IMG/VR virus record: IMGVR_UViG_3300045988_119030
Coordinates: 149,411 to 181,323 of that record
From: a virus
Reading direction: 5' to 3' (one strand)
DNA: 31,913 nt
Made by a program: the position numbers and the translations under genes. Under the pieces are notes generated by a model. It was not told where the DNA came from, searched no databases, and was given only the letters and a program-made list of their open reading frames with translations. Positions 1-30,722 of this stretch are shown one piece after another (the stretch's first letter is position 1; every line of letters starts with the position of its first letter).

Positions 1-591
1 AGTATACAAACGTGGACAATCAATAGGACATGTCTCATCTACCAGAATCTCAATTCTACTTCTTTTATTTTCTGGAACAGAGTTTAAAAAATCCCAATCT
101 CTATTCTTACGACGAGGAATAACTACACTTTCATAGGTGTCAAGTGCTTTTACAAAATCATAATCTTCCTTTGTAGCTGTAATACTCTTTGTAAGTTTAT
201 AATTAGGAAACTTATCTCGAAGATACTTTTCGAGGATAGGAGAATTAACAATAATTTCATTCATTCCATTATCAAAAAGTTTAAGCATTTCATTACATTG
301 TCTATCATATACATCTGTTTCTTCAAGATTAGGATTTGTAAGGGTAAAACGCAAAATAATATTATTCTTTTCATAAAATTCTCGTACAGCACAGAGATAA
401 TCAATATTATGTTCTGGCATTCCGCCCATAAAACCTCCACCATTCCAAATCATGCCAGGAAGTGCGCCATAAACATATTTTACTTTTGCTTCTGGATAAA
501 AAGCTTGAGGTTCAAGCTCTTGAAGTTCAAGTAATCTATCATAAACATCAATACCATAATAAAATTCAGGGCAATTAAAATTAATATCCAT
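1..591 (-). CDS. Partial CDS (N-terminal 197 codons visible; C-terminus lies beyond window start). Hypothetical protein, last visible gene of the rSAM/YcaO operon
   Basis: Uninterrupted minus-strand frame from ATG 591..589 to position 1 (translated by hand: MDINFNCPEFYYGIDVYDRLLELQELEPQAFYPEAKVKYVYGALPGMIWNGGGFMGGMPEH...). RBS GGAGAA 5 nt upstream. Absent from the ORF track only because no stop lies inside the window. Confidence 0.55.
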   Translation of the reverse strand, partial: MDINFNCPEFYYGIDVYDRLLELQELEPQAFYPEAKVKYVYGALPGMIWNGGGFMGGMPEHNIDYLCAVREFYEKNNIILRFTLTNPNLEETDVYDRQCNEMLKLFDNGMNEIIVNSPILEKYLRDKFPNYKLTKSITATKEDYDFVKALDTYESVVIPRRKNRDWDFLNSVPENKRSRIEILVDETCPIDCPRLYT

Positions 592-604
592 TTATATTCT
601 CCTA

Positions 605-2392
605 TCAGTAATTTGCAATCATTGTTTTAAAATCTTTAGAATTAAAAATTTCTCTCATTGGTTCAAGAATACATTTTTCAACCAAATATTTTCTATTTAA
701 GATATTATTAAAATCTTCATTAGTATATTCATAATTATATTCTTTTAAAATATTAATTATTTCATCTTTAGAGTATTTTCTACTTTTTACATAAGAATAT
801 AAATTAAGATACTTTTTAAATTTTTCATAATAAGGACTTACAGTAATATCTACTGCGAATTGATTATCTTCAAGAAGATAGTCTGCGGAATCTTCAAATA
901 AATTTTTTACGAAAATTTCATTAGGAATTGTTTGAATATCTTTATTATTATAAGAAACCAATAAATCTCCTTGAGATAAAAGACCTAAAAATCTATCTGT
1001 TAATATATCGTCCTCAATTAAATCTACAAAATTTAAACAGTCTTTGATTATATTATAAACTCCATCGCCGTTATTTAAATAATTTTGAATATGTTTACAT
1101 TTATTTTTAGTAAGAATTGCACTTTCTTTAAGGGTTTTTAAAGTTTTACATTTATCTAAAAAAGAATACCAAAAGCCGTCAAGATTATTTAAATAAATAT
1201 CAATAGCTACAACCTTATCACTTAAAGATACATCAGCATAATAAATTTCAGCTTCAATAGATTCCGCGATTTTTTTATTCCATTCAAAAATTTCTTCATT
1301 CGAATAATTTTTATCTTCATAAGATAAAAATACATTTTTATTAATAGTATTTACATATTTCTTATGAAAAAAAATATTCTCAGGAAATGTATTTAAATTA
1401 GTAATACAAGATCCACCCATGATAATAATATCGTTATTATCTAATGTTTCATAAGGAAGAATAACAGAAAACTTTCTATCATCATAAGAAAAGCAATTTT
1501 GATACATTTCAGTTAAAATACGTTCAACCGCAATTTCAAATACAGGAAAAGCACCAAAATTAACTGAGATAGTTCCATTTTTATAATTAATAAGAATTCC
1601 CATTACTACTGGAACATTAAACGTTCTTGACATATCAATAATATAATATTTATTGCCATGGGATTCAATAGCATTAATAATCTTAATTAACTTTTCATCA
1701 GTAATACTATTAATATCAACAAAATAATAATCCTTATTAGGATTAGTATAAAAATGACTAACAACATAATGTTCAAAAATTTCTGAAAGTCCTTGATTTA
1801 ATGCCTCAATTATAGTATTACCAGCAGCCATACCTGAACTTCCCTGATAACGCTGAATGAGACGAGGATCTAAATACTTTACATCTTTTTCATTATTTAA
1901 ATTAATATAAGGAATACCAAAAAATTTATTATTATACATAGAAGTAAGACAATCTTTAATTATATAATTAGTTTCTTCGTCAAAAGAATTAAAAAACTTA
2001 TACATTAAAGAATCTTTTCCACCAAGGGCTTCTTTAAAGTTTACTTCTTTTTCATTTCTAAATAATGAATAATTATAATTTTTTTGGTTTACTTTGATTT
2101 TTTCATTACACAAAAAAGGATTACATAAATAATGTAATCCATTGCAAAATCTTTCATACATTTCAGCATATCCAGAAGCCATAGCGAACTCTTTAGATAC
2201 TCCTTTTCCAAAAGATCTTAAAATAGAATGACCTTTATAGTATAAACGAAGAGCAAGACTCCATGTTGTAGATTGTTCTTGACGTAAAACTTCTTCTATA
2301 CAATAAAAGCCTCGATCCGCAAAGAATTGCTTAATATTATTTACTGTATCTAAAGGATTAGTTTCTTTATAATGCTGTGAATAATTATTCAT
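605..2392 (-). CDS. ycaO: YcaO-domain protein (ATP-dependent amide-backbone activating enzyme family), 595 aa, stand-alone E. coli YcaO-like size
   Basis: Hallmark YcaO motifs seen in translation: SFGKGVSKEFAMASGYAEMYERF (GKG-x-S/T...A.ASxxAExxER) and YQGSSGMAAGNTIIEALNQGLSEIFEHY (SxGxAAG...EAxxxGLxExxE). TGA stop. No in-frame TAG. Confidence 0.75.
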   Translation of the reverse strand: MNNYSQHYKETNPLDTVNNIKQFFADRGFYCIEEVLRQEQSTTWSLALRLYYKGHSILRSFGKGVSKEFAMASGYAEMYERFCNGLHYLCNPFLCNEKIKVNQKNYNYSLFRNEKEVNFKEALGGKDSLMYKFFNSFDEETNYIIKDCLTSMYNNKFFGIPYINLNNEKDVKYLDPRLIQRYQGSSGMAAGNTIIEALNQGLSEIFEHYVVSHFYTNPNKDYYFVDINSITDEKLIKIINAIESHGNKYYIIDMSRTFNVPVVMGILINYKNGTISVNFGAFPVFEIAVERILTEMYQNCFSYDDRKFSVILPYETLDNNDIIIMGGSCITNLNTFPENIFFHKKYVNTINKNVFLSYEDKNYSNEEIFEWNKKIAESIEAEIYYADVSLSDKVVAIDIYLNNLDGFWYSFLDKCKTLKTLKESAILTKNKCKHIQNYLNNGDGVYNIIKDCLNFVDLIEDDILTDRFLGLLSQGDLLVSYNNKDIQTIPNEIFVKNLFEDSADYLLEDNQFAVDITVSPYYEKFKKYLNLYSYVKSRKYSKDEIINILKEYNYEYTNEDFNNILNRKYLVEKCILEPMREIFNSKDFKTMIANY

Positions 2393-2440
2393 ATGATATT
2401 ATGCCTTTCTTTTTTCTATCATATAAATATATTACTATAT

Positions 2441-2492
2441 TTTTTTAATAAAGTCAAAAACCTACCATTTTATTTGGTAGTTTTTGACTTTA
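2441..2492 (-). promoter_or_regulatory. 16-bp near-perfect inverted repeat (AAAGTCAAAAACCTACC / GGTAGTTTTTGACTTT) directly after the stop of gene 2493..2996. It embeds a TTGACT -35-like hexamer 17 nt from TAATAT. Candidate terminator/promoter junction for ycaO
   Basis: Stem-loop read directly. Lacks a clean U-tract on either strand, so its terminator role is uncertain. Confidence 0.3.
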
Positions 2493-2996
2493 TTAAATTG
2501 AATAAAAGCAATTAGGACATAAATACTAATTATCATCTATTTTAAATAATGGAATATTACTTACTTGTAAATTACATTTAAAGCATTGTTTATTTTTATA
2601 AATTTTTGGTATAAAAATTTCTATATTTGGCTCAAATAAATTTAAAAGATTATTAGATATTTTTTGAAAGTAAATATCTTTTTCTTTATTAGTATCATTA
2701 TAATTATATTGTAAAATATATTTACATATTACTTTACAATGATTTAAATTAGTTAATTTTAATTCTTCTACTGGAATAATAATATCAGATATATTATCTA
2801 AATTTATTTTAGATTTAATTGTATATTGTATTTGAAGAATTATAGTTTTATCTTTTTTAATAATTCCTAAATTAAAGCAAACAAAAAGTATCCAATAGTC
2901 ATAAATACTATTACTGTCAAAATCAAAAGATAAAGCTCTTATTTTATCCCAAAAGATTTGTTCTGGAATTTTAAATCCGCCATTACTAAATTTCAT
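2493..2996 (-). CDS. Hypothetical protein (~167 aa) with C-terminal 4-Cys zinc ribbon (CFKC...CPNC). Contains an in-frame TAG at 2526-2528
   Basis: Track ORF 2526..2996 ends in TAG. The frame continues QYLCPNCFYSI to a TAA at 2493-2495. RBS GGAGAG before ATG 2996. Confidence 0.5.
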
Positions 2997-3154
2997 TTAA
3001 CTCTCCATTAAAACAATACTCATAATAATTATTTGTATCTTTTTCAATTTGAATACTCCGAGGATAATCTAACTCCCAAGATGTTCTTTTATTATAAAAC
3101 TATAAAAAATTTTTTACTATATCTTGTATAAATTCTTTATATTCATCGTAAGTA

Positions 3155-5212
3155 TCAATCATATAAATCATACTCTTCTTTCTCAAGATAATTTAAAAAT
3201 TGATCATGGGCAAATTGATAATATATATATCCATTAAAATAATTTAATATTGGATATATTTCTTTTTTTAAATTATCAAATGATTTAATATATTCTCCAT
3301 CTAAACAATGAAAATTAATAGTATTGTTTTTTATATCACCTATAATTTTTTTACTTAAAGGGCATAAACAATCATTATTTATTTGTTTTAAAGGATAAAT
3401 TAAATTTATTTTATATAAAATATAATAACTTGTTTTAATAAAATTTTCTATAAAATAATTATTATGTTTTGTATAAATTAAATTATCATATTCATAAAAA
3501 TATTTTATTTCATATAAAATTCTAATAATTATTGATTGTAATATTTTATTTTTTTTATCTAAATTTAAATTATAGATATAAAGAAACTGTAAAAAGAAAA
3601 TAACTATTTTTACTAAATAATCTATAGCCTCAGACAATCCCGTATGAGATATGTTACCTGGATTAGTATTTAAATCAATTATATAATTTCCAATAGTCTA
3701 ATCAATTAGTTGTCCTTCTCCATATAAATTACATAAATCAAAAAATAAACTATCTTCGCATAAACAAAAATTACTATATTTTATATTATATTTCTATAAA
3801 AAACTTCGTTTTAAAAGTAATCCAAGTTTATTATCAGGAATAATAAACTATATAAAATCATTTTTTTCGTTATTTTTTATAAAATTATAAAGAATTTCTA
3901 ATTCATTATTTATATTAAATAAATCATCTGAATCCCAAAATAAAACATATTCATTAAAAGAATTTTCTAATCCTACGTTTCGTGCGACTCCAGGTCCTTT
4001 ACGAGTAAGATTTTTAAAAAAGAAACAAGGAAAATCCGCGTTATCAAATATTTTAATAACTTTTCTCTCACAAGCTGAATTATCACTTATTAAATATATA
4101 CAACAATCTTTAATAATTGTTTGCGCTCTTAATGAATTATATAAATCAATTATCTAATTATCATTAAGGTTATAATAAGGAATAATTATATCTATTTTGC
4201 CATCAATAAATCTATTTATACATTTTTGTAAATAGTAATTATTATATCGAAAGTCAATTGGAGTTTTACCATTTAAAAATTCCTAATAATTATTTAAAAA
4301 ATCTTCTTTATTATTTATAAGTTTTAAATAAAAGTCGTAGTCTTCAAAATAAGCATTTTCCATTGATACAGTAAATTCTGATTTAATGTTATAACATTTA
4401 TGCCATAGCCAAGAAGCGGTTGGTAAAGTAGCATCACAATATTTACAAATTTTCTTAGGTGAAAATATAAAATTATGTAAATCATCTAAGCTATTTATAT
4501 CTTCTAACTACAAATAATCTTCTTCCTCTTCTGGAATATTCAAATTATATTTTTTACAATAAATATCTAAGAATGCGGAAAAAGGACAGATATATATCTT
4601 ATAATTTTTTAATGTAAAACAAGGTATTTCATGTGGACAATATTGATAATAAGCCTTTGCTGGATCAGTATCTCCATTTTCATTTACAAGCTACTAACGC
4701 ATAAATAATCGCTCTTGATGATTAAAAGCAATACCATATTCTTGGCATTCTTCAACATCTTCATAATTTGTATAATTACTATAAGCAGTTATGTCGAACA
4801 TTATATCCATATCAAGGTATTCTTTTTTATGTTTAATAATATTTTTCATATTTAATCCATTAGATAAAACTTTTAATTGAGTTTTTTCTTTTGGAAATAT
4901 TTCACGAGCTATTTTACATAATTCAAATAGTTGTGGGTGAAGAGTTGGCTCTCCACCCACAATCATAAATACTTTTATATTAGGAATTTTTTTATTAGCC
5001 ATAATAACCTAATTGCGGAAATCATTTATATCAATAAACCAAGGCGTGGCTAAAGGTGAAAAATGATTACATCCCGCGCAATTAAGATTACAATGATCTA
5101 CTACTTGTATTTCTAAGCTTACACCATCATAAACAGATTTCCAAAGACTATGTGTATATGGAGGAATCCCACGATAATCTTTATCTTTCTTTATCTGTAT
5201 ATCGTTCATCAA
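3155..5212 (-). CDS. Radical SAM enzyme (N-terminal) fused to or translationally coupled with a GT-A/family-2 glycosyltransferase domain plus a C-terminal domain of unknown function. 12 in-frame TAG codons, including a TAG-TAG pair at 4691-4696
   Basis: One frame from ATG 5212 to TGA 3155-3157 with zero TAA/TGA. It links track ORFs 5009..5212, 4694..5002 and 3155..3637. Motifs: CNLNCAGC (CX3CX2C) and GGEPTLHP (rSAM). IDIIIPYYN...SLRAQT, ARNVGLENSFNEYVLFWDSDD (GT2 Rossmann start, ARN...DxDD). Cys-rich stretch after the rSAM core. Confidence 0.6.
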
Positions 5213-5762
5213 ATTCTCCTAATATATGTGTATTATAATCAACTAATTCTCTTATTTGATTATTGCGTTCATGTAAAAAACATTGAGTACAAATTTCATT
5301 TAAATTGTTTAAAGGTTCATGGAAAAAATTGCAATAATGTTTTTCAAAATCAACATATTTACAATACTTATCGCATATTAAAATATTACTATCTTTATTA
5401 TAAATCACAGGATGATCTTCTCGTAAGCGGAAAGATAGCTGAATTTTAAACATTAAAGTTCCTTGATAAGAATATAAAAAAGTTTTATAAAATATATCTT
5501 GGACTTTACTTTCAAAAGTAAATTTCTATTTATCTGTAGTAATAAGCTCAATGCATTCTATTTCATTCTAATCTATAGCTTTAACTTGCTAATAAACCTA
5601 ATTTAGAAAAGAATAATCAATATCATTCTAATTTTTAATTATTTTTGCAAAAACTATTTCTTTTGGAAAATTTAATTGAAATATAATATCATCACATTGA
5701 CGCTCATTAAATTTAACAGATTTTAAAATTTCTTTATCTGAATTAATAAAATTAATAACCAT
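5181..5762 (-). CDS. Hypothetical small Cys-rich protein (CDKYCKY...HYCNFF...CTQCF). Possible N-terminal extension to ATG 5762 containing 6 in-frame TAGs. The core 5181..5453 is a clean ORF
   Basis: Frame from ATG 5762 runs into track ORF 5181..5453 with only TAG interruptions. The high TAG density makes the extension uncertain. Overlaps the rSAM start by 32 nt. Confidence 0.3.
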
Positions 5763-6090
5763 TTCGTTTATCAGGAATTCCTTTTAATCGATCTCCTAAG
5801 AAATATCTATATAATTCATAAGAATCAGCAATATTATCGCATAAACAATTATTATTATTTTCATTGTTATTATTATCGTTATTATTATTATTATTATTAG
5901 ATTTTTCTGCATGATCTGTAATAATTATTTTAATGAAATTATTGATAATAGTATTAATTTCTTCATTTTCACCATTATTTTCAATCCAATTTAAATAAAT
6001 AACATATAAAAGATCTCTATAATCTTCTACATTGCTATAATCAAAAGTTTCAATTAAATGATTAATTTGATTTTTCATTTCTTCAATCAT
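5752..6090 (-). CDS. Small Asn-rich protein (112 aa) with a poly-N tract and a C-terminal CLC motif. Candidate precursor peptide or accessory protein of the rSAM-SPASM enzyme
   Basis: ORF overlaps the stop of the upstream rSAM-SPASM gene (ATGATTGA coupling). Low-complexity KSNNNNNNNDNNNNENNNNCLCDN. Confidence 0.5.
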   Translation of the reverse strand: MIEEMKNQINHLIETFDYSNVEDYRDLLYVIYLNWIENNGENEEINTIINNFIKIIITDHAEKSNNNNNNNDNNNNENNNNCLCDNIADSYELYRYFLGDRLKGIPDKRNGY

Positions 6091-7489
6091 TGTAATACCC
6101 CAAATTATGGCAAAGATTTAACCAATTTTCTTTATATTTTTCATCTGGAAAATAATTTTTTTCTAAAGCAATTTTAGTTAATCCTAATTCACAATAACTT
6201 TTAACTAAAAAAGATATTCTTGTTTTATGTAATTCACAAACACTTTTAGGCGGTAAAAATAAATCTCCAGTAGCTTCGAGTGCCGCACCAAGGCAAAGTT
6301 TTAAACAAAACGGATCATAAGGACAAGTAACACATCCAACATTTAAATGAGTATTGTTTGTCTTAATTACTGTATAAAGACTTGGATTAATTGCTGTAAT
6401 TCCAATAATTTTATCATTTTCAACTTCAAATTTACCGCCAATAAATTGCTGATAAGAAGTTCTGTGGCAAGGAACTAATTCCATAGTAGCAACATATAAA
6501 CAAGTTTGATGAGAAATTGCACAAGTGTAATTTCCATCTTTCCAAGTGACAGTTGGTTGTAATGGATCATAATTGTGTAATCCAATTAAAGATCCTTCTT
6601 CCCCATCTCCTAAAAAGATATGTCGAGCTAACTTATCTAATGAACTATCATTCATTTGGAATCTAATTTCAAGCATGTGAGTTAAGAATTCAAGATAGTG
6701 ATTTAATTTTTCTTCAGTCCATTCATCATTACGAACTTCTAAGAACATGGGCTGAAATTCATCGCGAGGCCCTTTACATAATTTATATTTCTCAAATTGT
6801 TCAAGCCACCAATCATAATTTTTAATAGCGCTTTCAATATTATTTGGAGAAATCATTGGATGAATACCGCAACAGTTCTTAGAAAGAAATTGCATAATCT
6901 TATCATAATATTCAAAATCTTTATTTTCTTCTCTTACACTATCATAAGGACCATCTACAGAACAAGATAAATTTAATTCCATTTCAAGGTCAAGAAATTT
7001 TTGAAGATATTCTTCCACTTTAGCTGCTTTTTTATCATCAGCAACAAAACTAAAGTTATTGGGGAAAGCAATACGAGGATGATGATTCTTAAAAAGATTA
7101 GGATGTTCTTCAAAGAGAGCTCCATAATATTTTAAAAGTAAATCAAAAATACTAAAGCCTAAATTATCATAAAATAAATCTCCAGCAAAGAGTTCTATTT
7201 CAAGGAATAAGACTTTTCTTTCGTTAAAAATATAATCTAATATAATGTTCATATTTTTAAGAATTTTTTCATTATTTGCTCTTGTTTCAAGTGGGTATAA
7301 ATCTTTTCCGTAACGAGCAATATAACAATATTCACACTTTTGATTACATTCTGGACGAATAATAAACTCAAAAGAGCTTTCATTTATCCAATATCCTTCT
7401 TCTTTATCCCCTTGATTAAAGCAATGGTTATCAAGAAATTTTTCAAAATATTTATTATTATCTAAAATACAACCTTCACTAATATTCAT
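6083..7489 (-). CDS. Radical SAM / SPASM-domain enzyme (peptide/protein-modifying maturase class), 468 aa
   Basis: CNQKCEYC (CX3CX2C) near the N-terminus. C-terminal CAISHQTC...C and GCVTCPYDPFCLKLC (CX2CX5CX3C SPASM signature). Start overlaps the TAA of the upstream gene by 1 nt. Confidence 0.8.
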   Translation of the reverse strand: MNISEGCILDNNKYFEKFLDNHCFNQGDKEEGYWINESSFEFIIRPECNQKCEYCYIARYGKDLYPLETRANNEKILKNMNIILDYIFNERKVLFLEIELFAGDLFYDNLGFSIFDLLLKYYGALFEEHPNLFKNHHPRIAFPNNFSFVADDKKAAKVEEYLQKFLDLEMELNLSCSVDGPYDSVREENKDFEYYDKIMQFLSKNCCGIHPMISPNNIESAIKNYDWWLEQFEKYKLCKGPRDEFQPMFLEVRNDEWTEEKLNHYLEFLTHMLEIRFQMNDSSLDKLARHIFLGDGEEGSLIGLHNYDPLQPTVTWKDGNYTCAISHQTCLYVATMELVPCHRTSYQQFIGGKFEVENDKIIGITAINPSLYTVIKTNNTHLNVGCVTCPYDPFCLKLCLGAALEATGDLFLPPKSVCELHKTRISFLVKSYCELGLTKIALEKNYFPDEKYKENWLNLCHNLGYYND

Positions 7490-8991
7490 TAATTGTATAC
7501 TCCTTGTTCTGTATATCTATCGTCATCCCAACATTCTTTAGGTAATACCCAATTATTTTCTCTATCAACATAATTATATAAAGCAGAAGAAATTCTTAAA
7601 GTTCCAATGCTTCTTAATAATTCACTACCAGTAGAAACCAAATTATTATAAGTACAAGCAAGATTTTTTGTTGTAATAAAAGCTAAGTGAAGCAATTTAT
7701 TATAATCATATTTATACACTGAATTTAATTGTCCGCACTCATTTAGCATTTGATATTCATTTAAAATAGTTTGAAACATGAATGGAAAAGAAGTGGTTTT
7801 AAATAAATTATATTTATAAAACACCTTATCAATTTCTTCATCTGATGCTGTTAAAAGATTAACACAAGAATGTCCTCTTGTCATTAAGTCTTTACGGGAA
7901 AGAGTGTCAATAGTGCCATCATCTTTAATGTTGTTTGGGTTTATATCAAACATATAATTTTGACAAGATACCATAGTACCGTCCCATAAAAGCTTTAATT
8001 CACTCCAATTAGAGCCACAAAAATTATTCATAGATAATGATCTAATAACTTCTTCATTTTTATCTTTAATGCATTGTAAAGCTTCTTCAATTGTTAAAGG
8101 GCATCCTTTTTGAGTCACATATTCTCCCAAATCGCATAAACTATCTTCATAAACACTTCTATATCCAACGATTAAACTAACTGGCATTCGTGGATCATGA
8201 AAATCAGACACATCAATATTAATTAATCTTTGTAAAAAAGATTCATACTCAATACGCTCATCCACTGATCCGTCTCTTGGATGTTCTGGACAAATAGAAA
8301 CTGAAGGATTAAGCGTAATAGCTTGATTAATAACTTTTTCATTTAATTCATATCCAAAAGTATCTAATTCTTTATAATAATCATGAACTTTTTCAAGAGT
8401 ATCTAATTGATTAATGAGCATTCCAGACAATACACCATGTAATTGTATTGAAATATTTGTATGATTAAATTTAATTTTATTTAATCCCTCTATAACTGTT
8501 GAAATAGTTTGAAAAATACGTTCATTATTTGCATTTCTAATATTATTAGTAGAATAAGCTCCATCATATGAAAATTGAATTGATAAATTCACATCATCTT
8601 GAGTTGTTAATTCATCTACTCTTTTAGCAAAAGCAATTATACGTTCTGGAAAATCCATTCCATTAGTTGAAAAATCAATATTTCTAATATTAGGAAAAAA
8701 TTTAAACCAATCATCTAAATGCTCTGTAATAAGATGAAGTGTTAGTGTTGGTTCTTGACCCCAAAATCCAAAATTATCAATTATATATCTATCAAGGTCT
8801 AATCTTTTAAAAATTTTTTTTACATTTTCAAGATAAGAACCATCAGTTAAAGCTTTAATTGTATCTTGTTGTAATTTAGCAGAACAACCATTTAAACTAT
8901 TTTCTATCATGCAATACTAACAATGTAAATTACACCCACATGAAGATACGAGTGTTACTGCTCTAACATCTATATCTGTATTTTTTTTCAT
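7489..8991 (-). CDS. Radical SAM enzyme (~500 aa) whose CX3CX2C motif is split by an in-frame TAG at 8917-8919 (SSCGCNLHC-TAG-YCM). True start is ATG 8991 with RBS AAAAAGGAG
   Basis: Track ORF starts at 8910. Upstream same-frame reading gives MKKNTDIDVRAVTLVSSCGCNLHC*YCMIENS. GFWGQEPTL aligns with the GGEP motif. Confidence 0.7.
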
Positions 8992-9017
8992 AAATTCTCC
9001 TTTTTCTCTTAAAAAAT

Positions 9018-9770
9018 TTAAGATCTTGATCTTCCTGCTCCACTTCTATTCGCGCTGTTAGAAGTATAAGCCCCTCTATAGGAGCAAGGTCTATAACTGC
9101 CTCTATGAGTATCATTATTAGAGCCTCTATGGCTTGTATAATAAGTATAATTACTTGAATAATTAGAACTATTATAAGCATTATTAGAACTTCTATTAGA
9201 ACCGTTATAAGCATTATTAGAACCTCGATGAGTTCCATCATAAGCATAGTACCCATTTCTATGTGTACCATTATAACTAGCGTCATAAGCATTATTAGAA
9301 GCTCTATAACTACCATTATAGCCACCATCATAAGCATAATTAGAGGCTCTATAACTACCATCATAACTAGCGTCATAAGCATTATTAGAAGCTCTATAAC
9401 TACCATTATAACTACCATCATAAGCATTATTAGAAGCTCTATAACTACCATTATAACTACCATCATAAGCGCAAACCGCGTTTACTTCTTCAAGTTTTGT
9501 CCTAATTTGTGATAATGGAATATATCTAGTTAACTCATTTACTCTTGGGGCTGTAAAGGTGTCAAAAGTTGCTTTTGTACCAACGTAAGATACATTTCTT
9601 AAATTTTCAATTTCGTTCTTTATTGTGATAACATCTCGCGCCCCAACTCTTTGTTTAGTCTTATCAGGAATAGCAGTTCTACTTTGAGAAAATCTTGTTT
9701 GCGCTGTATTTAAGTTATCATATAAAGCACGAACATCAGCCCATGAAATTCGACTTCCTGTTCCTGCCAT
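9018..9770 (-). CDS. Tyr/Asn/Ser/Gly-rich tandem-repeat protein (250 aa): a ~95-aa N-terminal domain followed by ~15-aa repeats AYDGSYNGSYRASNN. Second gene of the operon, just upstream of the three rSAM genes
   Basis: Clean ORF, RBS AAAAAGGAG, TAA stop. Overlapping track ORFs 8963..9466 and 9228..9512 are repeat artefacts. Confidence 0.7.
   Translation of the reverse strand: MAGTGSRISWADVRALYDNLNTAQTRFSQSRTAIPDKTKQRVGARDVITIKNEIENLRNVSYVGTKATFDTFTAPRVNELTRYIPLSQIRTKLEEVNAVCAYDGSYNGSYRASNNAYDGSYNGSYRASNNAYDASYDGSYRASNYAYDGGYNGSYRASNNAYDASYNGTHRNGYYAYDGTHRGSNNAYNGSNRSSNNAYNSSNYSSNYTYYTSHRGSNNDTHRGSYRPCSYRGAYTSNSANRSGAGRSRS
9111..9470. repeat. Tandem direct repeats (45-bp unit, four perfect or near-perfect copies at 9291-9470, degenerate 30/45-bp copies upstream) encoding the repeat tail of the protein above
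   Basis: Exact 45-bp duplication ATTATTAGAAGCTCTATAACTACCATTATAACTACCATCATAAGC at 9381-9425 and 9426-9470. Confidence 0.8.
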
Positions 9771-9784
9771 AATTTTGCTCCTTT

Positions 9785-10195
9785 TTAATTATTAATTGAA
9801 TATTTAATTACAAAATCAACAGAAGAATTATATTCTTGTGCAAAAACTTGGTCCCCAATATCATTACTATACTCAAAAGAAAGTTCTTCAATATCATTTA
9901 ATTTCTTATCAAAAATAACACGATAATCTTCTGAAGTTGTTAAATAAGCAACTGTTATTTTATCCATAGTCTCTCTATTTAACTTTTTAATAATATTAGC
10001 TCCCTATTTAGCCAAATTTACTTTTTCCATATCATATTCTTGGCTAAATTCACGCATACGAAGAAAACAGAATTTGTTTTCAGTATTGGAACTAGAAGTA
10101 ATAGTAAAAGTAATTGGACCTGTAAGGATAGTATCCTCTACGTTTCCATCTTTATTAGTAATAGTAATTTTAAAAGTATTATCTAAATTTACCAT
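9785..10195 (-). CDS. Hypothetical beta-rich protein (136 aa) with one in-frame TAG (10004-10006) that joins track ORFs 10004..10213 and 9785..9967. First gene of the long operon
   Basis: Start ATG 10195 preceded by GAGGAGG at 9-nt spacing. The ORF ending in TAG continues in frame into the next ORF. Confidence 0.55.
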
Positions 10196-10224
10196 TTTAA
10201 TTTTCCTCCTCAAAAATTTTATAA

Positions 10225-10256
10225 AATATAGGATATATTATTTATTATCCTATATT
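10225..10256. promoter_or_regulatory. 11-bp inverted repeat AATATAGGATA-N10-TATCCTATATT in the promoter region of the operon. Candidate operator
   Basis: Palindrome read directly. Lies between terminator 10345-10374 and the first gene start at 10195. Confidence 0.4.
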
Positions 10257-10344
10257 TTATAAAAAAAAATTTTATTAATTTAATCTTTTTTGATTAAGTA
10301 TTTAAGTCTTTATTTAATTTATATTAATATAATAACAAAAAAAA

Positions 10345-10374
10345 AGAGTAATGTCAAATGACATTACTCTTTAA
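10345..10374 (-). terminator. Rho-independent-like hairpin (AAAGAGTAATGTCA-AA-TGACATTACTCTTT) after gene 10376..10681
   Basis: Perfect 14-bp stem flanked by A/T runs. Confidence 0.55.
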
Positions 10375-10375
10375 A

Positions 10376-10681
10376 TTAACTTAATCCTAATCTTGCCTTT
10401 AGATCAGCAATATTTTTCTTTTCATCTGTAGTAATTTCAATCGGGGTTTCTCCACCTGCGGTTGCCCCATCTTCAAAATTCAAAACATTTGAATCCGCGG
10501 TTGCGCCTGCTTCACCGACCGGAGTCTTTGGGCATGTCATACTAATAGCAATCTGAATTCGCTCACCATTCTCATTAGCCCAAAGATAATACTTTTTATC
10601 TCGCTCGCCGATCCAATCAGCGCCAAATACTTCCGCCATTTTCTTAGCGATCTGTTCCTTAGCTACTGCACCTTTAGCCAT
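10376..10681 (-). CDS. Hypothetical protein (101 aa)
   Basis: Clean ORF, TAA stop, ~45% GC. Confidence 0.65.
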   Translation of the reverse strand: MAKGAVAKEQIAKKMAEVFGADWIGERDKKYYLWANENGERIQIAISMTCPKTPVGEAGATADSNVLNFEDGATAGGETPIEITTDEKKNIADLKARLGLS

Positions 10682-10693
10682 ATCTAATTCTCC

Positions 10694-12127
10694 TTAACTA
10701 AAATTATGTATAAAGTCTTTTAAAGACCTAAAATTATTAACTTTTTCTTCACCAGCATCTCTAAAGCACCAAGGACATAAATACATATCAGTTCCTTTAT
10801 GATAGTGAATATCTTCTGTATAATATAAATTATTACAACATTCGCATCGTTTACAATAAGTATCCGCACAACTATCGCAAACTAATTCATTTTCATCGCC
10901 TACGGAATTTGCTTCGTCAAGGATTATACGAGAACCGCAACAAGCGCAATAACCATAGTTATCGTCTTCGTTTACTCCATAACTGAATTCACAATCTCCG
11001 CATCGCATATATTCTCCACTTTCAATTATAGTTTTACCGCATTGTAAACAAGGAACATCACCACCAATAGACCAATGAGGAAGATCAGTCTTGTCAAATG
11101 GATAATAATACAATTTTAAACTATAAATAGGCAAATAGCAAGAAGAATAAAGCAAATCATTATATTGAAGAGTATGCTCACCAATATCTTCAACGATATC
11201 ACTAATAGGATATAAACGAGACAAAATAGGAATCCATGTTTCAGATAATCCGATAGTCTCTTCTCCAAAAGGAATGCTACTCATCCTATTAGAGACAGTA
11301 GTAATACCTCCGTCTACCCATTCACGCAACTGAAAAGTCTTATCAAAAGTATTGATAATATCTTTAATTTTAATTAAAGCATTGGTTGTCATAAAAGGAT
11401 ATTGACGGCCAGCCATCAAACCGCGTCGCTTATCTTCCATATAAAGAAGCATACGCCATTTCTTAGAATTCCAAAGAACATCTTCGGGAAAGTGCGGAAG
11501 TTTCTGATTCTCTGCTCCGCGCAAATAGCAAATAAAAGTGCTTCTATCTACCATGTAAGATAAATTTCCTGCTCTATATTCACCATCAAGCGCATGGCAA
11601 GAGCGCCAATTATAAGTATTTTCACTTACGCTTAAAAAATCCAAAGGATGAACTGAGAAACATAATGTTCCCTCAATCTTGTCCTCTTGGATAATACGAC
11701 TTGCGTAATTTTGAATATCTTCCAAAGAGCGCGGATTCTCTTCAAAATACTTAAAAGCCTTAACTAATTTCATCCCTCTTGGAATCTTTTTATCCTTATA
11801 GAAATAAGTATCTATAACCGTATTGTTAAAGAATCCTTCTTTGTTTACTGAAATAAAATCCTTTAAGTCTTCATTGTTATAAGTATAATTAATTGTTTCA
11901 AGAAACTCTTCAAGACGATGTTCTTTAGTTTTATCATCTAAGGAAAAAGATACCTTTTCCGGCCATTCATAAATTAAATGACCATGAAAAAATTTAATTA
12001 AGTCTTTTTTGGCTTCGAGGAATCTTTCGAATAGTTCTTCTGTTTTTGGATTACTGATTCCTTGGGAGTAACTGATGACTTTGTTGAACTGTTCTCTAAT
12101 GCTTTCGATGTCGAAGTCATATGACAT
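10694..12127 (-). CDS. Large hypothetical protein (paralog A). Conserved core LCFSVHPLDF...W.SC...GEYRAG...WNSKKWR and a C-terminal tail with at least 5 CxxC zinc-ribbon pairs. Start is probably ATG 12127 (RBS GGAGGA), not the track start at 12148
   Basis: Paralogy with 14635..16239 seen directly in the translations. Confidence 0.7.
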   Translation of the reverse strand: MSYDFDIESIREQFNKVISYSQGISNPKTEELFERFLEAKKDLIKFFHGHLIYEWPEKVSFSLDDKTKEHRLEEFLETINYTYNNEDLKDFISVNKEGFFNNTVIDTYFYKDKKIPRGMKLVKAFKYFEENPRSLEDIQNYASRIIQEDKIEGTLCFSVHPLDFLSVSENTYNWRSCHALDGEYRAGNLSYMVDRSTFICYLRGAENQKLPHFPEDVLWNSKKWRMLLYMEDKRRGLMAGRQYPFMTTNALIKIKDIINTFDKTFQLREWVDGGITTVSNRMSSIPFGEETIGLSETWIPILSRLYPISDIVEDIGEHTLQYNDLLYSSCYLPIYSLKLYYYPFDKTDLPHWSIGGDVPCLQCGKTIIESGEYMRCGDCEFSYGVNEDDNYGYCACCGSRIILDEANSVGDENELVCDSCADTYCKRCECCNNLYYTEDIHYHKGTDMYLCPWCFRDAGEEKVNNFRSLKDFIHNFS

Positions 12128-13104
12128 TTGACTAATCCTCCAATACAATCTTTACAATACTCGCTGTGTGGGTTCGCAGGGTCAATTTCAAATGCCTCTT
12201 CACACTCCGCACACCATTCAACATTACTGGGAATACAATCAGGGCAATAAAAACATGTATGTCCATCTAATCCCTTTACTGGAAATGTTTCATACTCACT
12301 AAATAGCTGACCGCATCCTCTACAATGAACGTAGAATCCATCGCCATCAGTTGGAAAATTCTTACAAATATTATCGAACCAAATATTATGATAATTACGA
12401 TAATACTCAAAATTAGGGATATCTTTCTCTTGGAGCATGCGGATTACCTTATTAATCGTATCAAAAAGAGCACCCGCATTTAATGTTTCAATACGGTTAT
12501 GTTCATTTTTATAACCTACTGAAAGATTTACACCACAAATTTTCCATTCAGGGCATAAAACACTAATATCACTAAACGTGCCAAAATCTTCTACAAATCC
12601 AAAAGATTCAATGTAATCGATGAATTTAGGATTGTAAAGGTCATAAAACACACAATCATTTGTGCCCTGTCTATCCAACTGAATAATATATTTCAAGTTG
12701 GGAAATGGACACTCAAAATATTGTAATACTAATGCTTCGGCGCCCAATCCACCGATTTCTTCATCAGTGGTAAAAATAATAGAAGGGCGCAAAGACGTAT
12801 TTCTCAAAATATGAAGAATCGCATATACTCCTGCTCTATCATCTGCGCCAAGACCATCGGGCGACCAAAGCACATTTTTTCTTGTGTCATAATATAAATC
12901 TTTGACCGGTTTCTCAAACACGGTATCAAGATGAGCTACTAAAGCAATCGGAATATCACCAACCGCACAAACATACTCTTTAGTAATAACTACTTCAGTA
13001 TATTTAGATTTCAATACATCGGCAACATATTCTCTTAACTCATCTTGCGTCGAGCGAACCAGATATTCAAATAACCAAAGTTCATTAGTTTTAAAACCTC
13101 TCAC
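11998..13104 (-). CDS. MH-clan zinc metallopeptidase-like protein (M28/M42-like) with a C-terminal Cys-rich zinc-ribbon tail
   Basis: HLDTV, GADDRAG and DEEIGGLGAEAL motifs (metal ligands of aminopeptidase-type MH-clan enzymes). CRGCG...CFYCPDC...CAECEE...CKDC tail. The last ~40 codons are low-complexity and overlap the next gene by ~130 nt. Confidence 0.65.
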   Translation of the reverse strand: MRGFKTNELWLFEYLVRSTQDELREYVADVLKSKYTEVVITKEYVCAVGDIPIALVAHLDTVFEKPVKDLYYDTRKNVLWSPDGLGADDRAGVYAILHILRNTSLRPSIIFTTDEEIGGLGAEALVLQYFECPFPNLKYIIQLDRQGTNDCVFYDLYNPKFIDYIESFGFVEDFGTFSDISVLCPEWKICGVNLSVGYKNEHNRIETLNAGALFDTINKVIRMLQEKDIPNFEYYRNYHNIWFDNICKNFPTDGDGFYVHCRGCGQLFSEYETFPVKGLDGHTCFYCPDCIPSNVEWCAECEEAFEIDPANPHSEYCKDCIGGLVKCHMTSTSKALENSSTKSSVTPKESVIQKQKNYSKDSSKPKKT

Positions 13105-13155
13105 AGTTTATTCTCCTATCTTTTATCTTATATTTATATTATAACATTATTTTTT

Positions 13156-13956
13156 TTATTTGTCAATTGAGTCCTCTTCCGCCTCGGGGATAGGATTATT
13201 CTGCTTGCTTGCTTGAACGGCTTTATCTATAACACGAGAGAATATAAATGCGGTTTCACAATAATGACACGTCCCTTGTCGTTGACAGCGCTGACCGCAA
13301 TTGATGCGGTTGGGGCCAAAATCTTCGGGGATTCCACGATTATCCGCATTATAATTTAGATTGGTTAATAAAAGGTTTAGATTACCTTGCCAATGACCAC
13401 TTTGATAGATATCCAAAAGCACAGCTTCTTTGGAGAGCGCGGGTTCGTCAAATTCTAAGGTTGAGACATATGTTCCATAATAATCTACATCTTCCGGTCG
13501 GACATAAGAACCGCATATTCCATTTTCTCTTGGAAGGTTATCGTCATAGCATTTATTCGCAATCATACGAATTGGAACTTTTGCTTGCTGATTTAATTGT
13601 CTCAAATCAAACGTAAGCGGTGCCCCGATGAAAAGTTCGCTAACTCTAAGATCAAGGAGAACGCGGACTTCTGCCCATGTAGTAGCGGGATAAGCGAAAT
13701 AATACTTTACATCAATATTACATCCATTACGAGTAAGCATATCTTCAAATGCTACAATAAGATCGACTTTATTCTTAAAGGAATCAATTTCTTCCCAATT
13801 CACTTCTTCGTTTTTGCGGATTCTGATAATATATCGCTTATTGGGGAATTTCTAAATCATATCATACATAATGTTTATATCATTATAATTAACCATAAGC
13901 TCATCAGCCTTCTCGCGGACAACATCAGGTTGACGCACAGAAACACAATATTTCAA
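13156..13956 (-). CDS. Hypothetical protein with a C-terminal Cys cluster (CGQRCQRQGTCHYC). In-frame TAG at 13852-13854. TTG start after AAAGGAG
   Basis: Track ORF 13156..13803 extends upstream in frame through one TAG to TTG 13956. Confidence 0.5.
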
Positions 13957-13980
13957 ATTATATCACTCCTTTATAATATA

Positions 13981-14009
13981 ATTATAACAAAAAACTCCAA
14001 TTTTGTCAA
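13981..14009 (-). promoter_or_regulatory. Sigma70-like promoter TTGACA-N17-TATAAT for gene 13156..13956
   Basis: tgtcaa at 14004-14009 and attata at 13981-13986 on the plus strand, spacer 17 nt. Confidence 0.5.
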
Positions 14010-14082
14010 GAAAATTCTAAACGGCTTTTTACTTTTGGACTTTCGGTGTATGCGACCAGCACCGGTCGGAGCAGATAACAAG

Positions 14083-14114
14083 AAAAAATGGACTGAAAAT
14101 TTTTCAGTCCATTT
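14083..14114 (-). terminator. Hairpin GGACTGAAAA-TTTTTCAGTCC followed by a T-run. Terminator of gene 14128..14544
   Basis: Stem, loop and U-tract read directly. Confidence 0.65.
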
Positions 14115-14127
14115 AATCATTTAACTC

Positions 14128-14544
14128 TTAGTCCTCAGCGACAATCTTGCGATAAGCCACTTTCTTTGAAGCCTTACCGCCATCAGCGCCCGGAATAGAA
14201 ACCTCAGTTTTCTCCGCGCGGTTCTCGCTCACAAGAGTGCGGAGTCGATAACTGGCACGCTGTGCGGAAACACTCTCATCGCCGAGAGCCTTGACGATCT
14301 CAGGGATGGTCATAAACTCATCGTCATAAAGAACATTATAAATCTGCTCAGTCAGCTCATCGCCCTCAGCACGCTTGGCGGCCGCACGCTCCTTAGCCTT
14401 AGCAGTCTTCTTATCAAGCAACTCAATCTCATGCTCGCAAAATGCGATCACATCATTGGGATCATACTTAATCTCACCAGTGTGCATAGCTCCGATAATC
14501 GCGGTCAGATAATCGCGCTTAGAAACCTTAACTTCATTAGTCAT
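14128..14544 (-). CDS. Hypothetical Lys/Ala/Glu-rich protein (138 aa). Markedly GC-rich (~50%) compared with its neighbours
   Basis: Clean ORF. Compositional island. Confidence 0.7.
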   Translation of the reverse strand: MTNEVKVSKRDYLTAIIGAMHTGEIKYDPNDVIAFCEHEIELLDKKTAKAKERAAAKRAEGDELTEQIYNVLYDDEFMTIPEIVKALGDESVSAQRASYRLRTLVSENRAEKTEVSIPGADGGKASKKVAYRKIVAED

Positions 14545-14617
14545 AATTTTTACCTTAACCTTTCATAAATAACAATTTTATTTTTAGGAAGTATTTCTTC
14601 CTTTACCTTACATAAAT

Positions 14618-14646
14618 ATTATATATTATTTTTTTTAAAAAATCAA
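14618..14646 (-). promoter_or_regulatory. Conserved promoter motif TTGATT-N17-TATAAT
   Basis: aatcaa at 14641-14646 and attata at 14618-14623, 17-nt spacer. Same extended motif as the other promoters listed here. Confidence 0.45.
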
Positions 14647-14661
14647 AGAAGGTCTTTGATT
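14629..14661 (-). terminator. Hairpin ATCAAAGACCTTCTTTGAT plus T-run overlapping the stop codon of gene 14635..16239
   Basis: Inverted repeat read directly. Confidence 0.45.
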
Positions 14662-16239
14662 TGGGTTAGTGCCATTAACCCAAGAAATAAACTCCTTTTC
14701 ATTAATATCAAAGAGGTCTCTACCCTTTTTAGTGAGAGTTTCTCCATCGACATAATAATTGGAGCGCCAACCGTCTCTGTCTTCTTCAATTTCACCACTG
14801 AAAAAAGTTTTTACTTTTTTATCTCCACAACAATCCCAACAAATATCCACATAGAATCCAACTGGCTTCTTCTGGAATCGAAGGCGGATTTGCTTCATGT
14901 CATCATAATCTTTGCGGACTCTGCAACAAGGACAAATTTCTGTGCTTTCATCATAACAATAAGCACAGTAAGTTTTTCCATCAACATTATAAGTGTCATC
15001 GACATAAACAATATCGCCACACTTATCGCACTTTACCGCATCCGAACAACTCGTACAAATGGTCATTTCCGCGTTATTCTCTCTATCATCGAGGAGAGAA
15101 TCATCAAGAAGCTCTCCACAACACATACACTCAGATTCACCCGAGTAGTTAAGATCAATGTTTTCGTCCGTAGGAATCTTAGTGGAAACGTAAGCATTAT
15201 GCTCTGAATAGATATCGTTATACATGAAATTGGTATCAAGATTGAAATAAATATTTCTATCAAGCTCACCAATAATATTATTACTGTAATTCTGAATCTT
15301 ATTTAAATACTTGGTATAAGGACCAAAACCAAGATTCTGTTCAGCGAGCTTTTTGATCCAAGCAAGACAAATGCTTTCAAGATTTTCATTACAATAAGGA
15401 TAACCCTTGATGCCAAGAATAAGACTTTTATCTACAATGAAAAGCTCACGCCAGCGCTTGCTATTCCACATAACAGGCTTACCAACCTTATACCAAATTT
15501 CCATATCCTTATCAGATTTAAGGTAAGCTTCGAGGATAATGGGAGAATTCATCATCTCAACGGTTCCCTGACGATACTCGCCACCACCATTCTGCCATCT
15601 CATACAAGAGTCCCAACCGCAATTATTATCACTCATAGTGATATAGTCAAGAGGATGAATAGAAAGACAAAGTTCACCAGAAATATTTTTCTGATTAAGG
15701 AACTGAGAATGAGCAATACGGAACTTTTCATAGATATCGCGGTCAATCTCCAAGATATCACTCATCTTACCAAGCATCTTGCTAAGCTTCATACCCTTAT
15801 TAATCATAAGAGTTTTATTGTTATAAGTGAATTTAAAAGATTCACCATCATAAATATTAGACATTAAAGGATCAACATCCAAAAGACTTGCCAGATTAAA
15901 ATACTGAGTATTAGAGATGGTTGTTTTAAGATAAAGATCTCTTACCTTATTATTAAAGGTATTTCGGAATTCATATCCATCACTATTTCGACCGAAATAA
16001 TCATAAAAATCCTCACTCATCTCTTCATAAGAGCGAGAATAACTTACCTTACGAGAAATGATAAGATTATTTCCCAACATCTTGTAAAGATTCTGCTTAT
16101 TATAAGCCCAAAAACGGAGAATGTAATCGAGAGATGTCTTCATATCGGAACTATCTCCACCGAGACCCGCAAAATTGCGGATATACCCTTCAATCTTTTC
16201 GCAATCTTCTTTGGAAAGGAGTTCAAATAAATTAGCCAT
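14635..16239 (-). CDS. Large hypothetical protein (paralog B, 534 aa). Core LCLSIHPLDY...W.SC...GEYRQG...WNSKRWR and a C-terminal tail of multiple CxxC zinc ribbons
   Basis: Clean ORF. Paralogous to 10694..12127. Confidence 0.8.
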   Translation of the reverse strand: MANLFELLSKEDCEKIEGYIRNFAGLGGDSSDMKTSLDYILRFWAYNKQNLYKMLGNNLIISRKVSYSRSYEEMSEDFYDYFGRNSDGYEFRNTFNNKVRDLYLKTTISNTQYFNLASLLDVDPLMSNIYDGESFKFTYNNKTLMINKGMKLSKMLGKMSDILEIDRDIYEKFRIAHSQFLNQKNISGELCLSIHPLDYITMSDNNCGWDSCMRWQNGGGEYRQGTVEMMNSPIILEAYLKSDKDMEIWYKVGKPVMWNSKRWRELFIVDKSLILGIKGYPYCNENLESICLAWIKKLAEQNLGFGPYTKYLNKIQNYSNNIIGELDRNIYFNLDTNFMYNDIYSEHNAYVSTKIPTDENIDLNYSGESECMCCGELLDDSLLDDRENNAEMTICTSCSDAVKCDKCGDIVYVDDTYNVDGKTYCAYCYDESTEICPCCRVRKDYDDMKQIRLRFQKKPVGFYVDICWDCCGDKKVKTFFSGEIEEDRDGWRSNYYVDGETLTKKGRDLFDINEKEFISWVNGTNPNQRPSLIF

Positions 16240-28066: not shown

Positions 28067-28080
28067 ATTTAAAAACTCCT

Positions 28081-28781: not shown

Positions 28782-28797
28782 ATTTATTTTCCTTTCT

Positions 28798-29136: not shown

Positions 29137-29178
29137 TATTTATCACCTTTCAATAGTTTTTCTTTATTTTATATTTAT

Positions 29179-29207
29179 ATTATATATTAAAATTTAATAA
29201 AAATCAA
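29179..29207 (-). promoter_or_regulatory. Conserved promoter TTGATT-N17-TATAAT driving the leftward gene block
   Basis: aatcaa at 29202-29207 and attata at 29179-29184. Confidence 0.5.
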
Positions 29208-29261
29208 TAAAGCGGTTTTGTCGCCTCAGGGTAGCATAAAGACTGGATTTAATGATCGGCT

Positions 29262-30709: not shown

Positions 30710-30722
30710 GGAGTAAAAAGTA

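Follow-up and report, generated by a model that had tools for sequence, protein, structure and literature searches.

The maturation of a ribosomal precursor by radical S-adenosylmethionine (SAM) enzymes that carry a SPASM domain is a known kind of system. In the triceptide systems (XncB, OscB, MscB, YxdB, HaaB and YhhB), a SPASM enzyme is encoded beside a precursor whose core repeats aromatic-x-x motifs, and the links that are formed include Phe-Ser, Tyr-Asp, His-Ala, Tyr-Ala and Tyr/His-Arg (PMC11002830). In proteusins and other RiPPs (peptides made by the ribosome and modified after translation) with long leaders (NHLP, Nif11), a long structured leader precedes a variable core on which radical SAM and further tailoring enzymes act (PMC10858898). 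Mycofactocin combines a Tyr-bearing ribosomal precursor (MftA) with a SPASM radical SAM enzyme (MftC) and a family 2 glycosyltransferase (GT2; MftF), and Escherichia coli YcaO works alongside the radical SAM enzyme RimO on a protein substrate, S12. Here we describe an operon at positions 1-10195 (minus strand) of a 31,913-nt stretch of viral DNA, referred to below as the window (IMG/VR record IMGVR_UViG_3300045988_119030, positions 149,411 to 181,323). With the standard code the region is fragmented, whereas with TAG read as sense it holds ten co-directional minus-strand genes, g1 to g10, with a spacing of -32 to +158 nt; the ten packed genes of the original prediction were thus borne out on condition that TAG is a sense codon. 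We consider it probable that this is a phage-specific, RiPP-like protein-maturation operon, in which the repeat protein g2 would be the substrate, the radical SAM enzymes g3 and g4 would be the core maturases, and the intact product would be used at the end of infection. Novelty lies in the families of the precursor and of the enzymes, in the restriction to phages and in the association with U32-like proteins and prephenate, and in the literature searched we found no description of the cassette.

Hidden Markov models (HMMs) were built from the first loci and then scanned over all others (the loci are numbered L001, L002 and so on). At least 286 homologues of g4 were found, and the family is present in 37 IMG/VR loci, mostly viral contigs of roughly 80-200 kb; loci obtained by other routes were compared as well. 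The genes g3 and g4 were adjacent in every cassette that held both within the locus. A g2-type gene was directly upstream of them wherever its N-domain was recognisable, and was there in most lineages fetched; inspection of the upstream open reading frames (ORFs) revealed a g2-like architecture also in lineages missed by the HMM. A small helical ORF lies 3' of g4, radical SAM(-GT2) and g6-like genes occur in several lineages, and YcaO occurs in some only. Cassette carriers use the standard, a TAG-recoded or a TGA-recoded code and are distantly related phages. YcaO homologues of 30-39% identity were located on 115-214 kb contigs, beside radical SAM genes. The SPbeta-like element L007, which lies in the genome of Clostridiales Family XIII bacterium PM5-7, has almost the gene set of the window (U32-like, radical SAM-GT2, g6-like, precursor, g3, g4 and g5-like genes) in another order, inserted just upstream of terminase- and portal-region genes. 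The different order speaks for functional linkage more than for shared descent of one block. In L003, which is TGA-recoded, an analogous cluster with non-orthologous radical SAM genes and a repeat protein with N-terminal repeats sits between tail-fibre genes and the endolysin gene. The neighbourhood is therefore conserved in relatives, and no remote homology placed the radical SAM enzymes in a cofactor or nucleoside pathway. An undescribed phage RiPP-like or post-translational modification system, as first suggested for this DNA, is supported by the precursor-g3-g4 synteny and by a conserved N-domain followed by a hypervariable core. The emphasis on YcaO, SPASM and GT2 enzymes held in part: the conserved heart consists of the precursor, two radical SAM enzymes and U32-like proteins, while YcaO and the GT2 fusion are lineage-optional. 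The tailoring set clearly varies between lineages. L002 encodes at 5787-7979, between its U32-like and radical SAM-GT2 genes, three further proteins: a ThiF-family adenylyltransferase, a member of Methyltransf_21, and a protein of 271 aa that has 4Fe-4S ferredoxin motifs and weakly resembles reductive dehalogenase and QueG. Two genomes, IMGVR_UViG_3300045988_177309 (L021/L024) and IMGVR_UViG_3300045988_175607 (L022/L023), each contain three separate g3-g4 cassettes, two of them ~7 kb apart and the third ~27 kb or more away (in 175607 near the other contig end), and their upstream proteins differ.

Among the GenBank phages (50,697 records), tblastn with g4 found no homologue, megablast of the 10.3-kb region found nothing, and the only match to YcaO by tblastn was a host-type ycaO from the record of an E. 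coli prophage. In a set of 185,579 species-representative genomes, the cassette was present in only six loci, mostly short contigs of metagenome-assembled genomes, with assignments to Clostridia, Gemmiger, Erysipelotrichia, Family XIII, Lachnospiraceae and a Muribaculaceae bin. The taxa of these loci suggest an anaerobic gut setting.

The proposed substrate, g2 (9018-9770, minus strand; 250 aa), is located directly upstream of g3. Its residues 1 to ~100 make up a conserved three-helix N-domain ending at a conserved Cys, and residues ~101-250 are a Tyr/Ser/Asn/Gly repeat core of 15-aa units (AYDGSYNGSYRASNN), encoded by a 45-bp tandem repeat in 4.6 copies. The 150-aa core is composed of 19% S, 18% Y, 17% N and 12% G. 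Its aromatic residues are mostly spaced four residues apart, and S, A or G stands at +2 of the aromatic in 25 of 31 cases; those with Gly are unable to make a C-beta link. With the g2 N-domain as query, a full HMMER scan over 1.84 billion representative proteins recovered 65 representative clusters of the N-domain family. In nearly all of them the domain is N-terminal and is followed by a low-complexity tail, with a pooled composition of 19% S, 13% N, 13% F and 10% G (F+Y+H+W 22%) and with motifs that include SYN(S/A)SY, NFSFSGN and DNGFRSSDF; some precursor lineages have His- and Cys-rich core variants. The alignment of 36 N-domains contains three helix-like segments and a terminal Cys that is usually conserved, and the AlphaFold (AF2) model is a three-helix bundle with a pLDDT (model confidence) of 74. 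The N-domain had no Pfam or NCBIfam match and no informative PDB fold neighbour beyond generic helical bundles. A peptidoglycan-binding role for it, raised by a multi-repeat match to the PG_binding-type amidase P0177, was unsupported by either a Pfam match or a specific fold match.

Divergence is faster in the core than in the N-domain and the enzymes. Identity between the window and L001 was 96% for the enzymes, 93% for the N-domain and 80% for the core; between the window and L012, the values were 64-70%, 67% and 43%, respectively. A conserved leader with a hypervariable core is a RiPP signature for the g2 family. We propose that the three-helix domain would be the recognition or 'leader' part and the repeat core the part that is modified. 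Core lengths in the family range from ~45 to ~560 aa and are protein-sized, not peptide-sized. The likeness to the proteusins has its limits, as the N-domain of g2 lacks any Pfam, NCBIfam or fold match, the core composition differs, and neither a protease nor an exporter was seen in the conserved cassette families. One family member, P0223 (373 aa), has its core fused to a C-terminal segment resembling a Hint/intein-type autoprocessing domain, which starts C-L-I-P-G and has I-V-H-N six residues before the C-terminus, as judged by eye; this fusion is a hint that the modified core may undergo self-cleavage or ligation in some lineages. Across the g2 repeat, other frames also contain long ORFs (8963-9466, minus strand; 9228-9512, plus strand), which translate as Ile/Val/Met/Leu-rich or Ile/Ser/Thr-rich sequence and are by-products of the tandem repeat, not genes.

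The two enzymes that always accompany the precursor are both of the radical SAM type. The 500-aa g3 (7489-8991, minus strand) has a twitch-like auxiliary domain and passed the Pfam Radical_SAM cut-off (2.6e-8, 34.7 bits versus 29.5), while its NCBIfam matches, to a twitch radical SAM model (9e-7) and to PapB (1.8e-6), were far below their cut-offs. Its C20/C24/C27 and auxiliary C325/C343/C446 are invariant in 36 sequences. The 468-aa g4 (6083-7489, minus strand) was recognised as a radical SAM enzyme with a full SPASM domain from its Cys motifs, CNQKCEYC (C48/C52/C55) and seven auxiliary Cys (C323, C341, C386-x2-C389-x5-C395-x3-C399 and C418). All ten are invariant in 37 sequences, so the SPASM CX2CX5CX3C motif is complete, although the HMM scores remained below the curated cut-offs (Pfam 13.3 versus 29.5; TIGR04085 18.1 versus 27). 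It is the most conserved gene of the cassette. Weak family matches of g3 and g4 were mostly to peptide or protein maturases (PapB, HxsB, QhpD, CbpB and SCIFF), with some to MoaA and NrdG. A PDB sequence and profile search with g3 and g4 gave no informative relative; a match to ChlB (E 0.045) reflected the CxxxCxxC motif alone.

In our proposal, g3 and g4 would most likely abstract core hydrogens and form cross-links at, or adjacent to, the aromatics that recur at regular intervals, for which the aromatic-to-C-beta cyclophanes of the triceptide type would be the closest analogy. The g2 protein and its relatives repeat Y/F/W/H-x-(S/A/G/N) motifs in a similar way, and the aromatic-x-(S/A) motifs would suit such links. 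The system also differs from the triceptides. The enzymes did not match the models of 3-residue cyclophane-forming enzymes (3-CyFE; Xye, Grr and Fxs types), for which no NCBIfam match was obtained at E<=0.1, and they always come as a pair. The leader is folded and ~100 aa long, the cores reach ~560 aa, and the system is phage-borne with U32-like, YcaO and GT2 accessories.

The last gene, g10 (1-591, minus strand), is cut by the window edge, as the original prediction of a partial gene had it. The window holds the N-terminal 197 of 292 aa, and the full protein was supplied by L001, a 196-kb viral contig with the same gene order and a YcaO that is 89% identical. From its fold and from weak profile matches it could be identified as a U32-like TIM-barrel Fe-S protein. 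Its own score against Pfam PF01136 (Peptidase_U32) was below the gathering score (E 0.1, 12.3 versus 22.4), two of 12 relatives matched U32 (best 4.6e-5), and the family member in L003 carries a precomputed PF01136 match. The fold of the family is a TIM barrel closest to the only solved U32 protein. Three subtypes are present with at least four conserved Cys each, the fourth Cys of the g10 subtype being found in five of eight sequences. A PDB profile search with the U32-like proteins gave nothing, and the direct profile link to UbiU/UbiV was weak or absent (hhalign versus E. coli UbiU: E 0.005, probability 7%). The likeness to UbiU/UbiV, RlhA and TrhP lies in the g10-type barrel with its conserved Cys, in adjacent U32-like paralogue pairs of about 290 and 310 aa (UbiV has 292 aa and UbiU 331 aa), in the linkage of the cassette to chorismate mutase or 3-deoxy-D-arabino-heptulosonate 7-phosphate (DAHP) synthase, and in the presumed anaerobic gut setting. 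The sequence similarity, by contrast, is marginal, a protein substrate would be unprecedented for U32, and no UbiT-like partner was seen.

Between one and three U32-like paralogues follow the cassette in most loci. A chorismate mutase and a DASS transporter are encoded beside it in L002, L018-20 and L039/40/44, a DASS transporter (cut by the locus end) in L008, and a DAHP synthase above the curated cut-off in L007; these genes lie at 2340-3943 in L002, 12797-14472 in L018, 5-1527 in L039, 20384-21479 in L008 and 14178-14996 in L007. The phage lineages with these neighbours are several and unrelated, three having the mutase with the transporter. For UbiU/V, which are U32 proteins, the oxygen donor is prephenate, RlhA and TrhP are likewise linked to O2-independent hydroxylation, and the authors of that study proposed prephenate-dependent hydroxylation as a general U32 property (PMC10990095). 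The recurrent chorismate mutase/DASS or DAHP synthase neighbours thus point to prephenate-dependent hydroxylation by the U32-like proteins as a putative activity of the cassette. Furthermore, loci whose core was richer in F+Y+W had more U32 paralogues (Spearman 0.67, p=0.003, n=17 non-redundant loci, uncorrected), a correlation that is suggestive only, as it ignores phylogeny and covers +/-10 kb. In our scheme, g10 would hydroxylate the core, most plausibly at aromatic rings, in an O2-free reaction with prephenate as the oxygen donor. A more specific version, in which an aromatic-rich protein is cross-linked by the two radical SAM enzymes, ring-hydroxylated at Tyr/Phe by U32 with prephenate to a DOPA-like (3,4-dihydroxyphenylalanine-like) state and then glycosylated, is offered tentatively, and we regard it as rather unlikely in all its details.

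The g9 gene (605-2392, minus strand) encodes a 595-aa ATP-dependent enzyme of the YcaO superfamily and of the E. coli type. The Pfam YcaO match was 7.3e-26 (91.7 bits versus a cut-off of 25.7), and the best solved relative was E. coli YcaO (4q84, 5.8e-22). The two proteins, of 595 and 586 aa, align end to end with 22% identity, and E79/R80 and S202/E203/E206, which we take to be the ATP/Mg ligands, are invariant. The protein is probably an active ATP-using enzyme. It failed the models for YcaO_for_S12 (97.5 versus 700) and TOMM_cyclo_SagD (32.9 versus 219), and its C-terminus (...KTMIANY) is not Pro-rich. An E1-like partner gene was not found in the window, and a ThiF-family gene was found only in L002. 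Azoline formation, which had been put forward for the YcaO protein, is not the default expectation for an enzyme of the E. coli non-azoline type. We suggest instead that g9 would activate an amide of g2 using ATP, acting on a protein beside radical SAM enzymes as E. coli YcaO does with RimO. It differs from that case by its low identity, by the lack of a RimO-type methylthiotransferase, by its place in a phage operon and by its position beside a repeat precursor in relatives. YcaO presence did not correlate with the Cys content of the core.

Glycosyltransferases decorate phage DNA, and the enzymes of the operon could accordingly be thought to modify nucleic acid or the translation apparatus (tRNA, rRNA, a ribosomal protein or phage DNA), with g2 as an unrelated neighbour. 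Among characterised YcaO proteins the closest is indeed that of E. coli, an accessory factor in the methylthiolation of S12; RlhA and TrhP, both U32 proteins, act as hydroxylases of rRNA and tRNA, and a 16-tRNA array follows the operon in L001. A radical SAM enzyme is also used in phage DNA hypermodification, but the enzyme in the thymidine pathway belongs to the spore-photoproduct-lyase type, from which g3 and g4 differ (PMC8989533). Moreover, g3 and g4 have twitch and SPASM domains, and it is mostly peptide or protein maturases that they weakly match; a g2-type gene is fixed upstream of them across three codes and several gene orders; and the scanned proteins had no match to RNA- or DNA-binding, thymidylate-synthase-like or kinase families. 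We therefore consider a nucleic-acid target very improbable. The array of L001 (12758-21440) lies directly after the operon and includes two tRNA-Asn, tRNA-Ser, tRNA-Phe and tRNA-Asp; a suppressor tRNA with a CUA anticodon was not found in it, and the window itself has no tRNA.

The maturation reading, with g2 as the protein substrate, assigns a further step to g7 (3155-5209, minus strand), in which a radical SAM domain (~30-300) is fused to a GT2 domain (~340-460) and which would add a sugar. Pfam matches were to Glycos_transf_2 (7e-14, 52.5 bits versus 23.3), Radical_SAM (1.1e-7) and Fer4_12 (1.3e-5), and the GT2 half has the DxD-type motif DSDD ('FWDSDDLF'). Orthologues of the fusion are present in L002 and L007, and the radical SAM domain alone is present in L003, L009 and L015. 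SPASM radical SAM enzymes, a GT2 and a Tyr-bearing precursor together resemble mycofactocin (MftC and MftF), and g7 weakly matched MftF (0.0015) and MftC (0.0097). This raises the alternative that g2 yields a small peptide product, either a redox cofactor of the mycofactocin/PQQ kind or short antimicrobial peptides freed at lysis; RiPP antimicrobials typically pair a conserved leader with a hypervariable core, and the repeats could be multi-core cassettes. However, the scores for MftC (15.1 versus 265) and MftF (17.5 versus 280) were far below the cut-offs, MftB/D/E equivalents are lacking, and no peptidase, flavoenzyme or exporter was seen among the conserved cassette families. The g2 protein ends in GAGRSRS, not in a conserved C-terminal dipeptide such as the Val-Tyr of mycofactocin, and its long core, which varies in length and composition across the family, is unsuited to a fixed cofactor. 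We give a small product little credence.

Low-complexity domains that self-associate resemble the core of g2 in their [G/S]-Y-[G/S]-type composition. The g2 protein might accordingly be an unmodified structural or condensate protein, with the enzymes directed at cell-wall or capsular polysaccharide or at a host protein; the GT2 and GT8 enzymes of some loci could act on glycans, and no recognition domain was found that ties the enzymes to g2. This alternative, which we judge unlikely, leaves unexplained why two radical SAM genes always come directly after a g2-type gene, why the U32 copy number tracks the core aromatics, and why YcaO is directly adjacent upstream of the precursor in L005, L039 and L043. 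All three alternatives were judged less likely than maturation of g2, because none of them explains the fixed precursor-g3-g4 adjacency.

The reading of TAG as sense is real, as judged from three observations. The CxxxCxxC motif of g3 (CNLHC-TAG-YC) is complete only when TAG is translated, g7 with read-through is 684 aa and has orthologues of the same length in other phages, and the g1 homologues of the sister clade L012-L014 have no TAG at that position. In-frame TAG is carried by g1, g3, g6, g7 and g8, with nine in g7 and five in g6, and the original prediction that several operon genes are among the most TAG-rich was correct. Recoded stops are enriched in late genes. The TAG codons of these five genes thus argue for late expression, and the operon is probably expressed late in infection. 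In relatives, the operon adjoins terminase, portal, tail-fibre or lysin genes. We favour an intact late protein over a small secreted toxin because of the TAG codons, the neighbouring structural and lysis genes, the absence of a protease or exporter and the cores of up to ~560 aa. The product would then be an intact cross-linked, glycosylated protein, serving as virion-associated or released material late in infection. The choice of an intact, modified end-of-infection protein over a small toxin is the weakest step of the argument.

Several points weigh against the proposed maturation of g2. The gene content, the conserved synteny, the leader-core architecture and the cofactor motifs are observed, whereas the modification, all of the chemistry and the role of the product are inferred from synteny and family membership. 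About one third of the aromatic-x-x motifs of g2 have Gly at +2 and hence no C-beta. No match of g3 or g4 to a characterised maturase family was above cut-off and neither has a close solved relative, so that the cross-link chemistry rests on analogy. A RiPP recognition element (PqqD/RRE) was not detected in g1 to g10 by Pfam or NCBIfam, in searches that included no profile-profile test; g1 and g5 remain candidate leader-binding partners. Neither a leader peptidase nor an exporter was found in the window operon or in the families shared across loci, though an exporter may be unnecessary for a lytic phage. The targets of the E. coli-type YcaO and of the characterised U32 proteins are the ribosome, tRNA or a quinone, not RiPPs. 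The g10 protein is U32-like and not a proven member, an assignment from fold and weak Pfam matches; the window has neither chorismate mutase nor DAHP synthase, and the correlation of U32 number with core aromatics carries the limits given above.

The remaining genes, g1, g5, g6 and g8, would be accessory or chaperone-like proteins. The first, g1 (9785-10195, minus strand), is a 136-aa acidic protein with one TAG that has homologues only in the window's own clade and no Pfam, PHROG or PADLOC match; small ORFs occupy its position in L007, L009 and L002. The 112-aa g5 (5752-6090, minus strand) is helical, acidic and Asn-rich and is orthologous by position to the small ORF found after g4 in most loci, with weak similarity to a 147-aa protein of L007 (2.7e-4). 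Two plausible substrates had been proposed for the operon. The g2 protein behaves as one, while g5 was rejected as a second, its poly-Asn run being lineage-specific and its helical N-part conserved, as in an accessory protein. The 193-aa g6 (5181-5762, minus strand) has a Cys-rich C-terminus and is a conserved accessory (family F10) found in the window clade, L007 and L018-20. The 167-aa g8 (2493-2996, minus strand; one TAG) has a C-terminal zinc-ribbon-like CxxC...CxxC and is specific to the window's clade. No operon protein had a meaningful match in PHROGs or PADLOC.

Upstream of g1, a terminator-like hairpin (10343-10372, minus strand) with a 13-14 bp stem followed by a T-run is unchanged in L001 and L012; this hairpin terminates the 101-aa gene that lies upstream and sets the upstream limit of the operon. 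The top sigma-70-like match in 1-10700, TTGACA-17-TATTAT with an extended TG (10329-10357, minus strand; 11 of 12 consensus positions), overlaps this hairpin and is a consensus match only. Promoter-like sites were not enriched over shuffled sequence (78 found versus 87.8 expected). A single promoter had been placed at 10214-10300; one promoter driving the operon is plausible, with the best site just outside that interval (10357-10329), while the interval itself contains a perfect inverted repeat of 19 nt (10217-10264), whose arms (TTTTATAAAATATAGGATA and TATCCTATATTTTATAAAA) are separated by 10 nt. This repeat separates the promoter-like site from the ribosome-binding site of g1 (GAGGAGG at 10205-10211). 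It is identical in L001 and partly kept in L012, and its half-site did not occur elsewhere in the window above chance. A role in control of the operon, as an operator or as a 5'-untranslated-region hairpin, is possible. An Rfam scan of the window gave zero matches.

A conserved backbone block (10376-16239 in the window) lies upstream of the cassette in one phage lineage, made up of the window, L008-L010, L012, L013, L015 and L039. It comprises the 101-aa 'MAKG...' protein, paralogous 477- and 534-aa proteins with Cys-rich zinc-ribbon tails, and the families F9, F11 and F12. Distant homologues of the 477-aa protein occur in Enterococcus phages of ~140 kb. In the TAG-recoded L008 (1554-2636) and L009 (2348-3427), a release-factor gene with PCRF and RF-1 domains lies inside this block, a few kb upstream of the cassette, and the window has no equivalent between F12 and F11. 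TAG is patchy in the rest of the window. The genes at 24956-25885 and 29658-30308 carry nine and eight, respectively, and most others none. The former has repeated Cys motifs (LCQCECG, CQCDCG and LCQCSCG) and a weak DUF2726-like C-terminus, and the latter is helix-turn-helix-like and on the plus strand. Gene orientation flips from minus to plus at ~29.1-29.7 kb, the sign of the GC skew reverses near 28 kb and G+C drops to ~27%. The region ~28000-31900 may represent an origin of replication or an early promoter region with divergent transcription.

If the proposed maturation of g2 is real, the cassette would represent a large unnoticed maturation family, seemingly near-confined to big uncultured phages of gut anaerobes, and a new substrate family with a folded three-helix leader and an aromatic/Ser/Asn-rich hypervariable core. 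The distance of its radical SAM families from every characterised maturase would make new radical chemistry likely. It would provide a protein substrate for testing U32 proteins as general prephenate-dependent anaerobic hydroxylases, and a concrete job for phage shikimate-pathway auxiliary genes. Should the DOPA-like version hold, this would be the first protein substrate for U32 hydroxylases and would explain the chorismate mutase, DAHP synthase and carboxylate transporter of gut phages. The catalytic motif of g3 needs TAG translation, which ties the pathway to stop-codon recoding and, probably, to a late time of expression. Finally, a product used as virion or matrix material or as a released effector would be a new kind of phage-host interaction.

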